Positions 35,382 to 39,998 of a stretch of 64,000 bases of DNA are shown here, one piece after another. Made by a program: the position numbers and the translations under genes. This stretch comes from Candidatus Palauibacter ramosifaciens. GTDB lineage: Bacteria > Gemmatimonadota > Gemmatimonadetes > Palauibacterales > Palauibacteraceae. The notes below the pieces were generated by a model. It did not search any database, was not told where the DNA came from, and saw only the letters and a list, made by a program, of their open reading frames with translations. Every line of letters begins with the position of its first letter. Position 1 is the stretch's first letter. The stretch lies in NCBI GenBank assembly GCA_009845855.1, contig VXYT01000112.1, positions 8,472-72,471 of the forward strand, given 5' to 3'.

Positions 35382-35452
35382 GGTCCCAGGCTACGGGCTG
35401 GATCGGCGCGGTTTCAAGTCCCGCGATCCCGCAGCGTCCTGAACATCAACCA

Positions 35453-35487
35453 TCCCCGGCCACCGAGCGGAACTCGGTGGCCGGGGA
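35453..35487 (-). terminator. 15-bp-stem hairpin (TCCCCGGCCACCGAG-cggaa-CTCGGTGGCCGGGGA), 3' of small secreted gene copy 1 and 5' of glpK
   Basis: It is a perfect inverted repeat. The same palindrome recurs at 37022-37066 in the same relative position after paralog copy 2. Confidence 0.5.
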
Positions 35488-35552
35488 CGGCTCTCGGCGA
35501 AGACCCAACCCCCGCGGACGGAGCTTCGAACCGGTCACGCCTTGCGCGCGGC

Positions 35553-35843
35553 TCATGGACACGGGAGGCCGGCGAGGCCGCCGTTATCCAGGTGGTACCA
35601 CCCGACGGTCATGTTCACGGGAATCCTCCAGATGAACAAACGCACGTAGAACGTCACCTCCTGAGAGCCTACCAGGCGCCCGATTGCGAGATTGTCCGGA
35701 CCTCCGGACACCCACTCCGCACACTCGTCCTGTGCCGCGGCTTCGGACGGTTGGGCCAGCGAAAGCGCCAGGGCTCCCGCAAGAAGCCATGCCACCCCGA
35801 GCAGCCACGCTCCTCCGCGATTTCTCCTCGTCCTCATCATCAT
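35553..35843 (-). CDS. small secreted cysteine-containing protein, paralog copy 1 (start at one of three tandem ATGs 35837/35840/35843)
   Basis: MMMRTRRNRGGAWLLGVAWLLAGALALSLAQPSEAAAQDECAEW... is a signal peptide with an AXA cleavage site. There are 2 Cys in the mature part. Its 5' UTR, signal peptide and first mature residues match the ORF at 37129-37476. Confidence 0.6.
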   Translation of the reverse strand: MMMRTRRNRGGAWLLGVAWLLAGALALSLAQPSEAAAQDECAEWVSGGPDNLAIGRLVGSQEVTFYVRLFIWRIPVNMTVGWYHLDNGGLAGLPCP

Positions 35844-35865
35844 CCACCTCCCCTGATCGGTCAGC

Positions 35866-35888
35866 GAGGGCGACACCCTGCCGCCCTT
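35866..35888 (-). promoter_or_regulatory. conserved 5'-leader hairpin (mRNA AGGGCG-GCAGGGUGU-CGCCCU) just upstream of the SD of secreted-protein copy 1
   Basis: The same stem, with a 2-nt-different loop, occurs at 37502-37524 ahead of copy 2. About 60 nt of leader are conserved between the copies. Confidence 0.4.
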
Positions 35889-35950
35889 CCGATACCAGGA
35901 TCCTGAGAAGCTTCAACGGGGCATCAACGGGAGTCGCGGCGGGGGGAAGA

Positions 35951-37144
35951 TCATCGGTCCCGGTCTACAAGCCGGACCGGCGCGGCTTCGAGGCTCGCAG
36001 TCCACATGGGATTGAGGACCGCCCGATCCAGTCGGTCGATATCGACGCGAACCGCCCGTGCCCATGGTCGATCGACGTCGGCGCCGAAGACCAGGGGGAT
36101 CGCCTCGAGACGCTCCAGGTCCAGTACCCGACCCCTCGTGACCAGACCGTCGGCGGTCACCGCGGAGGTTGTTCCGGCGAGCAGGCGACCATCGTCGAGA
36201 GGCGTAAGGGACATCACCACCGGTGAGGAGAGGACTCGGTCGCGTCCGCCGAGCGCTTCGATCATCTCCTCGTTCTGCTTCACTTCGCGAGCCTGCATCT
36301 CCTTGGGCAGGAAGACGATGCCCACGAGCTCGCCGTCGGGGCGATAACTCACGAGCGCAAGCCGATCCCCGTCGAGGACGTGTACGAGACCGTCGGGCGT
36401 CACCGCGACCCGATCCTCGGGGAGCTGTACTTTGTCTGCGGAGTCGTCGGAGTCTTCGGGGTCGACGATCCACTCGGCCGGGATCGGTCCGAAAGCGGTA
36501 TGCGCCTGCTCCGAAACTCGCGTCAGGTAATGGTCGGGGAACGCATCGCCCGCGACGAGCAGCCCGAGTTCCGGATGTCCCGCGATACCGCTTGCGAGAC
36601 CGGGAAACCGCCGGCTCGCCACGAAATCGCCCTCCAGCGTCAGGTAGGTGACCCGGCCGTTCCCGCTATCGTGGACCAGAACCCGATCATCCGCCCGGGA
36701 CAGATGCCACGGGAGCCTGTACTCTCCAGGTCCTTCCCCCTCCCTGCCCATGGTTCGCACCGGGTTGAGACCCTCATCGAGCAGGACGATACGCGGGTCG
36801 AGCCCGTCGGCGACGAAATAGCCGCCGGGTACGGCCACTACGTCGATGATGGAACCGAAGCTGACGCGTTCGTCCAGTTGATCCAGGTGGGTATCGGACG
36901 GCCCGATTTCGTAAACGTGGCTGGTGCTCTCGCTGAAATAGACACGCCCGTCGTCGGCGTCCGGGCCTCCGCAGCCCGCCGAACCGAGGGCGCCCGCCAG
37001 ACCCAGAGCGATGGTGCGCGAAACCGTCCCCGGCCACCGAGTTCCGCTCGGTGGCCGGGGACGGTTCGCAGCTGCAGCCTCAACTCGCGCGGGACGCGAC
37101 CTCGAACCGATGACTCCGCGCGCTCGACTCACTGGAGGTCCCAT
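35951..37144 (-). CDS. NHL-repeat beta-propeller lipoprotein (start uncertain)
   Basis: Lipobox LGLAGALGSAGCGG. NHL-like repeats recur, e.g. GREGEGPGEYRLPWHL and VYFSESTSHVYEIG. The annotated N-terminal 40 aa include the translated 37022-37066 palindrome (RPRPPSGTRWPGTV) and give an implausibly long n-region. No canonical start lies between the palindrome and the lipobox. Confidence 0.6.
   Translation of the reverse strand: MGPPVSRARGVIGSRSRPARVEAAAANRPRPPSGTRWPGTVSRTIALGLAGALGSAGCGGPDADDGRVYFSESTSHVYEIGPSDTHLDQLDERVSFGSIIDVVAVPGGYFVADGLDPRIVLLDEGLNPVRTMGREGEGPGEYRLPWHLSRADDRVLVHDSGNGRVTYLTLEGDFVASRRFPGLASGIAGHPELGLLVAGDAFPDHYLTRVSEQAHTAFGPIPAEWIVDPEDSDDSADKVQLPEDRVAVTPDGLVHVLDGDRLALVSYRPDGELVGIVFLPKEMQAREVKQNEEMIEALGGRDRVLSSPVVMSLTPLDDGRLLAGTTSAVTADGLVTRGRVLDLERLEAIPLVFGADVDRPWARAVRVDIDRLDRAVLNPMWTASLEAAPVRLVDRDR
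37022..37066 (-). terminator. 20-bp-stem hairpin (AACCGTCCCCGGCCACCGAG-ttccg-CTCGGTGGCCGGGGACGGTT), 3' of secreted gene copy 2
   Basis: Second copy of the CCCCGGCCACCGAG palindrome, with the loop inverted relative to copy 1. Confidence 0.5.
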
Positions 37145-37476
37145 TCCGTGTAGTCATCGCACCGGAGGCTCAGGTGGCTTCCATCGTGCATCCGGTAGAC
37201 GCCGACGTTGAAGCTCACCGCGATGCTGCCGTTGAGCCCGCCGCTCAGGCCGGCGCCCTCGACGCCGGCGCTGCCGCCGAAGGTGGCGGTAACCCGCTGC
37301 CAGCCTATCAGCGTTCCACTCGCCGGAAAGTCCCGACCTCCCGAGATGTAGTCCCCACACTCGCTCTGCGCCGCGGCCTCGGACGGCTGCGCCAGCGAGA
37401 CCGCCAATGCCCCCGCGAAGGCCCACGCCACGGCGAGCGGCCACGCCGTTTTCCTGCCTCTCCTCGTCCTCATCAT
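37129..37476 (-). CDS. small secreted cysteine-containing protein, paralog copy 2
   Basis: MMRTRRGRKTAWPLAVAWAFAGALAVSLAQPSEAAAQSECGDY...RCDDYTEWDLQ. SD GGAGGTGGACG sits 6 nt before the first ATG. Confidence 0.6.
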   Translation of the reverse strand: MMRTRRGRKTAWPLAVAWAFAGALAVSLAQPSEAAAQSECGDYISGGRDFPASGTLIGWQRVTATFGGSAGVEGAGLSGGLNGSIAVSFNVGVYRMHDGSHLSLRCDDYTEWDLQ

Positions 37477-37501
37477 CGTCCACCTCCCCTGATTGATACC
37501 G

Positions 37502-37524
37502 GAGGGCGACGCCGTGCCGCCCTC
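37502..37524 (-). promoter_or_regulatory. conserved 5'-leader hairpin (mRNA GAGGGCG-GCACGGCGU-CGCCCUC) upstream of secreted-protein copy 2
   Basis: See 35866-35888. The stem is identical and the loop differs at two positions. Confidence 0.4.
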
Positions 37525-37626
37525 TCCAGCACAAGGATCGGGGCGGACATCAACGAACTATCAACCCGCGCGCCCCGGCCATGAGCCGCGCGAGCCGCCA
37601 ACGAACGGTGGATCGGGGAGGGCGAC

Positions 37627-39994
<2,368 letters not shown>

Positions 39995-39998
<4 letters not shown>

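Follow-up and report, generated by a model that had tools for sequence, protein, structure and literature searches.

Organization of the locus

A 64,000-nucleotide (nt) stretch of DNA from Candidatus Palauibacter ramosifaciens, referred to as the window, carries on its minus strand a gene for a six-bladed β-propeller lipoprotein flanked by genes for two small proteins with predicted signal peptides, designated small A and small B. The minus-strand gene order is recF, a DciA-family gene, gyrB, small A, propeller, small B, glpK, and thyX. Small A (115 aa, 37129-37476) is supported by its open reading frame (ORF) and translation, by homologues, by a family profile hidden Markov model (HMM), and by metagenome contigs that carry an identical called protein. 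Small B (95 aa, 35553-35840) is an old paralogue of small A. Its ORF and translation are backed by the HMM, by an identical catalogued protein (P0055), and by an orthologue in another Palauibacter locus, L007. The window contains no further copy of the small gene.

The propeller gene (35951-37132) encodes 393 aa when read from GTG 37132 and 397 aa when read from ATG 37144, the only canonical starts in frame. The GTG overlaps the stop codon of small A as GTGA, and the NCBI call for a 100%-identical protein (P0057) has 393 aa, equivalent to the GTG start. Each small gene is preceded by a conserved 5′ leader (37477-37566 for small A and 35841-35929 for small B). Hairpin A (37022-37066) lies within the propeller ORF. 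Hairpin B (35448-35490) is part of a 5′ relic of a second propeller gene (35440-35555), recognized by DNA alignment and phmmer, and is followed only by glpK. All of these features are on the minus strand.

The small proteins

Small A and small B share 47% sequence identity (BLASTP E 3e-17) and near-identical signal peptides. By inspection of the sequence, each signal peptide is of the Sec type and is composed of a basic n-region (MMRTRRxR), a hydrophobic h-region of 15-20 residues (AWPLAVAWAFAGALAVSLA), and an A-x-A motif in the segment QPSEAAA, which is followed by Q. Cleavage of small A is predicted between AAA and QSEC. The mature part of small A is about 79 aa long and contains Cys4, Cys70, and a long Gly-rich loop, and that of small B is about 59 aa long, with Cys4, a penultimate Cys, and a short loop. 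The two mature parts align throughout with one loop indel and retain the L-x-G and V-G-x-Y motifs as well as both cysteines. A twin-arginine signal was considered and rejected: T-R-R is followed by G-R-K or N-S-R rather than by hydrophobic residues, and the arginine pair is missing in distant members.

Close homologues of the small proteins fall into 56 clusters. An exhaustive search with a mature-domain profile retrieved 74 representatives, nearly all of 85-125 aa with a generic signal peptide, and the broad family HMM matches small A at E 4e-32 and small B at E 1e-18. The named sources (Palauibacter, Longimicrobiales, and Gemmatimonadota) all belong to the Gemmatimonadota. The mature domain is β-rich and spans 60-90 residues. 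The first cysteine is located 1-4 residues past the signal-peptidase site, with AxA right before it in distant members, and the second is near the C terminus. The N-terminal part of the mature domain follows the consensus C-A-x-Y-I-S-x-G-x-x-D-x-P-x-x-G-x-L-x-G-x-x-T-V-T. After a variable loop rich in Gly, Ser, and Thr, the C-terminal part follows the consensus T-Y-x-V-G-x-Y-x-M-x-D-G-x5-C-x-x-Y-T. The mature N-terminal Gln is invariant in the Palauibacter clade and missing in distant members.

The 58 aligned family members have no match in Pfam or NCBIfam, and the family has none among PDB sequences. Models of anti-phage defence systems (PADLOC) and phage families (PHROGs) gave no match to small A, small B, or the propeller. 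The only hint of a bacteriocin or a ribosomally synthesized and post-translationally modified peptide is a match of the small proteins to lanthi_III_b at E 0.2.

These data bear out much of an original prediction made from the window alone, which described two duplicated and diversified small proteins with a shared signal peptide on both sides of an NHL-propeller lipoprotein. The duplication is evident from the BLASTP match and the homologues, the selection pattern described below fits diversified secreted proteins, and the arrangement is evident from the gene coordinates and the propeller fold. The N-proximal and C-proximal cysteines noted in each mature part are both invariant in more than 100 relatives, which makes a disulfide probable. 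The proteins indeed match no family or entry in Pfam, NCBIfam, PADLOC, PHROGs, or PDB, and their more than 100 relatives in divergent lineages show that homologues are not confined to one strain. The statement that the two sequences diverge completely beyond the signal peptide does not hold, as small A and small B align end to end with both cysteines kept.

The propeller lipoprotein

An AlphaFold2 model of the propeller displays six confident blades (predicted local distance difference test (pLDDT) score of 90.6), and a fold search identified NHL domains as its closest structural relatives. Among PDB sequences, the propeller family profile matches the NHL region of Thin (E 3.9e-30) and TRIM71 (E 6e-25). 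The single propeller sequence of the window scores below the Pfam NHL threshold, and the family profile detects the NHL repeat. The propeller also resembles DUF5128 (PF17170). The window sequence matches this family with 16.8-17.2 bits (E 0.003-0.004), below the gathering threshold of 22.9, and 43 of 65 propeller homologues match it at E ≤0.01, the best at E 5.5e-9. PDB entry 4raa is matched both by sequence profile (E 7.5e-6) and by fold.

The top structural matches are NHL domains with a binding, non-enzymatic role. Foldseek also returned, more weakly, streptogramin B lyase and bacterial glutaminyl cyclases. The conserved residues constitute the structural NHL motif G-x-E-G-x-G-P-G-E-Y plus scattered Asp and Gly residues, among which no metal-binding or catalytic constellation was identified. 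The lipobox, assigned by inspection of the sequence, reads TIALGLAGALGSAG before the Cys in the window, GLAG before the Cys in most orthologues, and IAAC or LSAC in distant homologues. The lipobox Cys is residue 58 in the 397-aa reading and is the only conserved Cys in the propeller family. One apparent natural fusion of a small protein to a propeller, P0152, looks like a frame-shifted gene call.

Association of the small gene with the propeller and DsbA

The Palauibacter comparison comprised 13 loci found by scanning species-representative genomes (L005-L017). All 13 share the synteny gyrB-[small+propeller]-glpK-thyX, with a small gene directly upstream of the propeller homologue. The same adjacency is present in 8 of 8 distinct distant loci, where the flanking genes all differ, and hence in 21 of the 21 loci examined. 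The propeller homologue is intact in L018, L021, L023, L024, L026, L027, and L029, and is frame-shifted in L031.

Four of the eight distant loci additionally encode a DsbA/Thioredoxin_4 protein with a CxxC motif. It is adjacent to the pair in L021 (CAAC), L024 (CPAC), and L031 (CSSC), and is fused to the C terminus of the propeller in L018 (CPAC). Because the propeller family lacks conserved cysteines besides that of the lipobox and the small protein has two invariant ones, the oxidoreductase would have the small protein as its natural client. A second, shorter family member with both cysteines is encoded in L021 and L024. The combination of a long-loop and a short-loop protein around one propeller thus recurs outside Palauibacter.

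Other genes adjoin the module in some distant loci. PspF-like sigma-54 activators, which consist only of AAA+ and HTH_8 domains (305-366 aa), are found in L018 (7930-8847, opposite strand) and L021 (4568-5668), and an HDOD-domain protein precedes the module in L024. These neighbours hint that, in other lineages, the module is controlled by stress or signals.

L026 (6001-9261), on a Palauibacter chromosome, is a second, unlinked module. A small gene (105 aa) and a propeller (357 aa) are followed by a 175-aa gene on the opposite strand and a further propeller (351 aa). The first propeller has its own unrelated 15-bp hairpin in the 5′ coding region.

Duplication history

Seven of the 13 Palauibacter species contain one small gene and one propeller. 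In others, a second small gene is followed by what is left of a second propeller: residues 1-139 in L009, residues 4-45 in L008, and essentially only the hairpin in L012 and the window, the second propeller being undetectable in L012. In the window, the region 3′ of small B aligns with the DNA 3′ of small A and yields a phmmer match to propeller residues 25-48. The relic forms a frame-shifted 36-codon ORF that starts on the stop codon of small B as ATGA and ends just past the hairpin. This graded series of remnants indicates that small B arose by duplication of a whole small+propeller unit, whose propeller copy then decayed. The flanking arrangement in the window is what remains of the duplicated unit.

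The duplicated cassette is built from the ~90-nt leader, the ORF, and ~110 nt of downstream sequence up to a 43-nt palindrome whose GC stem of 18-20 bp encloses a 5-nt loop. Small B is still followed by the hairpin, as are the second small genes of L008, L009, and L012.

A second full propeller is present in L011 and L013, the latter also with a duplicated glpK fragment. The order in L013 (7582-9478) is small A, propeller 1, propeller 2, the glpK fragment (residues 11-115), small B, and intact glpK, which points to a separate duplication with a boundary inside glpK.

The proportion of synonymous differences (pS) between small A and small B of the window is 0.52 in the signal peptide and 0.41-0.56 elsewhere, compared with 0.19-0.43 across small A regions between orthologues. 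The duplication is therefore old, and it antedates the Palauibacter species examined. As synonymous divergence is also high in the signal peptide, the likeness of the two signal peptides has been kept by selection. Recent duplication or gene conversion as the source of the shared signal peptide is ruled out by the same value, which is as high as elsewhere in the gene. Taken jointly, the family, the pairing of small protein and propeller, and the duplication history are very probably correct as described.

Selection on the module

Ratios of nonsynonymous to synonymous substitution (dN/dS), which are Nei-Gojobori averages over the 13 species unless stated and come from small samples, are 0.11 for gyrB and 0.16 for glpK. 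The propeller gives 0.36 in its mature part, 0.49 in the signal core, and 1.07 in the N-terminal extension before the hairpin. For small A, the ratio rises from 0.43 in the signal peptide, where dS is low at 0.21, to 0.62 in the mature part and 0.88 in the loop. Small B compared with its L007 orthologue has a ratio of 0.18 in the signal peptide and 1.48 in the mature part. The signal peptides of the small proteins are under purifying selection and the mature parts evolve fast (dN/dS 0.6-1.5). A signal peptide more conserved than the mature part is unusual and fits a diversifying exported protein.

Distances of the small protein and the propeller among the 13 species are correlated after controlling for gyrB (partial Mantel test, r 0.31, p 0.02), which lends weak support to co-evolution of the two proteins.

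Synonymous divergence between species is larger for the propeller (dS 0.57) and mature small A (0.48) than for gyrB (0.25) and glpK (0.32). The raised dS could result from weaker codon bias or from exchange of divergent alleles.

Leaders and hairpins

The leader of small A contains tandem GTTGAT hexamers at 37565-37560 and 37554-37549, a short stem (GAGGGCG..CGCCCTC), and a strong Shine-Dalgarno sequence, GGGGAGGTGG. The small B leader repeats these elements, with GTTGAT at 35928-35923 and GTTGAA at 35917-35912, and begins about 22 nt past the propeller stop codon. The leader precedes every first and second small gene in the 13 species.

Tandem GTTGAT-N5-GTTGAT hexamers are located about 75-90 nt 5′ of every small gene in L005-L017. 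Their 11-bp spacing is typical of sites for response regulators of the OmpR/PhoB type. Folding of the leader consensus gave 0 compensatory pairs and no covariation, and no Rfam family reached its gathering score anywhere in the window, leader and hairpin included. Anti-Shine-Dalgarno pairing in the leader is possible but unsupported. A sigma-54 promoter was considered in view of the PspF-like activators near two distant loci, but the GGCAC(G)-like element of the leader has GG-N9-GC spacing in most species and no convincing site emerged. Likewise, no sigma-70 consensus promoter was found in the leader.

Hairpin A has a perfect GC-rich stem of 20 bp and a 5-nt loop that reads CGGAA on the sense strand. 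It occupies codons ~27-41 of the propeller N-terminal extension, upstream of the hydrophobic core of the signal peptide. The 136-nt region around it has a folding energy of -79.7 kcal/mol (z -5.2). The 12-bp core of the stem (CCGGCCACCGAG/CTCGGTGGCCGG) does not vary among Palauibacter-type loci, even in L016, the most divergent of them, whose propeller is only 52% identical. Several species have sense-strand G-U wobbles at the edge of the stem. The GTGA overlap is conserved (TTGA in L016), the reading frame is kept up to the lipobox in all species despite one 3-nt indel, and no canonical start codon follows the hairpin in the Palauibacter species compared. In 7 of the 8 distant loci, a non-homologous GC stem of 9-15 bp is found either just past the small gene or near the start of the propeller ORF.

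The hairpin codons have dN and dS that are both ~0.12. These equally low values indicate that the constraint is on the nucleotides, not on the protein, and the dN/dS of 1.07 before the hairpin means that there is no protein constraint in that segment. The hairpin may act as an RNA-level attenuator or stabilizer. The exact palindrome has three matches in metagenomes, two of them at this locus type. A dispersed repeat of the repetitive extragenic palindromic (REP) type or an integron attC site was rejected, given that the palindrome occurs only at this locus type and that no integrase is present.

The loop of hairpin A, CGGAA, is the reverse complement of TTCCG, the loop of nearly all other species and of hairpin B in the window. 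Its stem is perfected to 20 bp, and the outer pairs are imperfect in other species. The inverted loop together with the perfected stem looks like the signature of a template switch at a quasipalindrome. The change alters 3-4 codons of the propeller N-terminal extension, from SSARWPGI to SGTRWPGT.

Public assemblies break at the palindrome: L001 (10100-10130) has 10 N inside the hairpin, and L015 (6380-6480) has poly-G junk and a run of N. Propeller starts are called differently (383, 393, or 397 aa) because of these breaks, which also account for PGAP calls of 339-342 aa that start inside the signal peptide.

Sequence context

The GC content of the window is 66-70%, and the window is full of chance ORFs. 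Proteins identical or near-identical to those of the window come from sponge-metagenome assemblies labelled Gemmatimonadales or Candidatus Palauibacter. No tRNAs were found in the window. The locus lacks genes for radical SAM, LanM, and YcaO enzymes, for an ABC or other transporter, for lysis or release, and for a modification enzyme. The DciA-family (DUF721) gene at 39588-39998, between recF and gyrB, shares 4 nt with recF. Near 32-34 kb of the window, the sign of the GC skew reverses, which we think reflects a switch in gene orientation.

Proposed function and alternative explanations

The functional unit is composed of a small protein and a six-bladed NHL lipoprotein, with a CxxC oxidoreductase of the DsbA type in many lineages. 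The reading we favour, at somewhat less than an even chance, is that the small proteins are exported, disulfide-stapled mini-proteins that are docked on or matured by the propeller and made in excess over it. Small A and small B would be exported by the Sec pathway and cleaved after AAA, and oxidation of the two cysteines would create an end-to-end disulfide. The conserved N-terminal segment and the β core would dock on the membrane-anchored propeller, which would serve as a binding or maturation platform, as proposed for the NHL domain of thioredoxin-NHL proteins, while the variable loop would stay exposed. The stable hairpin and the GTGA overlap would make the small protein far more abundant than the propeller. 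With the propeller of small B deleted down to the hairpin, one propeller would serve two small proteins. The disulfide is fairly probable. Control of the small protein to propeller ratio by the hairpin is evenly balanced between true and false, and physical docking or maturation, proposed by analogy, is possible but somewhat doubtful.

Several points weigh against this model. Export, disulfide formation, docking or maturation, and expression-ratio control are all steps that we infer. The 64-kb window encodes no DsbA-like sequence, and the AlphaFold2 model of small A, built with 43 homologues, reaches a pLDDT of only 53 and contains only a three-strand β sheet. The high dN/dS of the mature parts could stem from relaxed constraint rather than diversification, and the weak Mantel signal could come from a history shared at the locus. 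The hairpin lacks a U-tract and terminator prediction was negative; it may nonetheless be a plain GC-rich terminator or a site that acts at the DNA level, and covariation gives no proof of an RNA role because the stem is invariant.

A broader version of the model is rather unlikely. It envisages an envelope system in which an NHL-propeller/DsbA platform would mature Sec-exported mini-proteins, with the hypervariable loop as their active surface. The mini-proteins would be diversifying effectors of sponge-symbiotic and free-living Gemmatimonadota, such as interbacterial toxins, host- or phage-facing decoys, or adhesins. The conserved signal peptide and N-terminal segment would form a recognition leader, and the palindrome within the ORF an expression switch.

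The original prediction likened the small proteins to bacteriocin/toxin-like or surface-ligand families. The bacteriocin or toxin label gains no direct support from a locus that is devoid of transporter, lysis, and modification genes and that 13 species keep at the same core position, between gyrB and glpK. In its fullest form, this explanation pairs a bacteriocin-like toxin with an immunity lipoprotein, the translationally coupled propeller, which would shield the producer; an arms race would lie behind the duplication and divergence. Such a role would suit small, Sec-dependent disulfide proteins whose signal peptide is conserved and whose mature part evolves fast, and a lipoprotein gene directly downstream with a start/stop overlap agrees with it. 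Copy number also varies, and the propellers without a small gene in L011, L013, and L026 resemble orphan immunity genes. Yet besides its core-genome position the system has no transporter, lysis or release gene and no outer-membrane route, and resembles no bacteriocin family. No cognate propeller accompanies small B or the second small genes retained in L008 and L012, which is awkward for a propeller acting as the cognate immunity protein. For an immunity protein, an NHL propeller of 340 residues would be unusual, and its association with or fusion to DsbA fits maturation better. We consider this explanation unlikely. An enzyme-substrate relationship, in which a catalytic NHL-fold propeller of the lyase, cyclase, or lactonase type would modify the small proteins at, for example, the N-terminal Gln or a conserved Tyr, is more doubtful still and must be called improbable. 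The weaker Foldseek matches to streptogramin B lyase and glutaminyl cyclases and the invariant Gln of the Palauibacter clade agree with it, and one propeller for two paralogues would suit an enzyme, but the conserved propeller residues are structural with no catalytic or metal-binding constellation identified, the Gln is missing in distant members, and the best structural matches are binding domains.

The small proteins might instead have no direct link to the propeller and be independent periplasmic or secreted proteins with structural or stress roles, the propeller being merely co-regulated and the hairpin a terminator. A strong hairpin past the small gene would set this gene apart as its own transcription unit, each small gene has its own conserved leader, and small B lacks a propeller of its own. 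Such independence is difficult to reconcile with adjacency in 21 of 21 loci across deep divergence and entirely different flanking genes, with the stop/start overlap and frame continuity through a hairpin after which no canonical start is available, or with the fusion to DsbA of a propeller whose only conserved Cys is that of the lipobox. It is judged distinctly unlikely. That the ORFs are spurious or decaying, either by chance in GC-rich DNA or as pseudogenes, is scarcely credible. The mature dN/dS of small B against its nearest orthologue is at least 1, and a window of 66-70% GC is rich in chance ORFs; still, both ORFs are intact, and more than 100 sequences from divergent lineages share the conserved signal peptide, cysteines, and core motifs. 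Purifying selection also acts on the signal peptide of small B (dN/dS 0.18), and each gene comes with its own conserved leader and a strong Shine-Dalgarno sequence.

Comparison with known systems

Gemmatimonadota are abundant and almost uncultured, and their envelope biology is mostly unexplored. The phylum-wide small-protein family described here has no entry in curated libraries and is accompanied by an obligate NHL lipoprotein partner, often together with a DsbA-type enzyme. The fast mature parts behind a conserved signal peptide make the small proteins candidates for interaction with other cells or the sponge host, and the invariant palindrome within a coding region offers a clean case in which to study how gene ratios are set by hairpins in GC-rich bacteria. 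If the pairing were plain co-regulation, the result would be only a new domain of unknown function.

Genes for DUF5128 proteins in Bacteroidota often neighbour genes for small NVEALA peptides, which would be an analogous pairing of peptide and propeller. The window propeller resembles these BF0058-type proteins (PDB 4raa) in being an exported or lipoprotein six-bladed propeller of unassigned role. However, it scores under the Pfam cut-off for DUF5128, and the small proteins resemble neither NVEALA nor any Pfam family. A literature search found no work on the small-protein family, nor on NVEALA or DUF5128.

Sec-dependent class II bacteriocins of the lactococcin 972 type are likewise small and β-rich, with an ordinary signal peptide, a partner encoded directly downstream, and a fast mature part. 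The module described here differs in its lack of sequence similarity, of an ABC transporter, and of an immunity-type membrane protein, as well as in its core position and large NHL partner. As the producer is diderm, export to the periplasm alone does not release the small protein.

The arrangement of the hairpin recalls the intercistronic stem-loops of puf, the malEFG REP sequences, and pilin operons, which cause the genes of one operon to be expressed at different levels and in which a stable stem-loop follows a small, presumably abundant product and precedes a larger partner. Distant lineages similarly keep the position of the stem but not its sequence. The Palauibacter stem differs in being inside the N-terminal coding region of the downstream ORF, with an invariant 12-bp core.

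A further parallel is found in proteins that combine a thioredoxin fold with an NHL domain, including human NHLRC2, plant SOQ1, and bacterial TlpA/DsbA-NHL fusions. In contrast to these, the window propeller stands alone with no linked oxidoreductase, and the thioredoxin-fold partner in its relatives is of the DsbA/Thioredoxin_4 type and either C-terminal or separate. A dedicated candidate client with two cysteines, encoded directly upstream, is unique to the present module. Since the clients of thioredoxin-NHL proteins are mostly unidentified, a hard-wired candidate would make the relationship testable. The small protein and NHL propeller, joined by DsbA in some lineages, constitute a new conserved module that is best seen as a variation on the thioredoxin/NHL client-binding theme.

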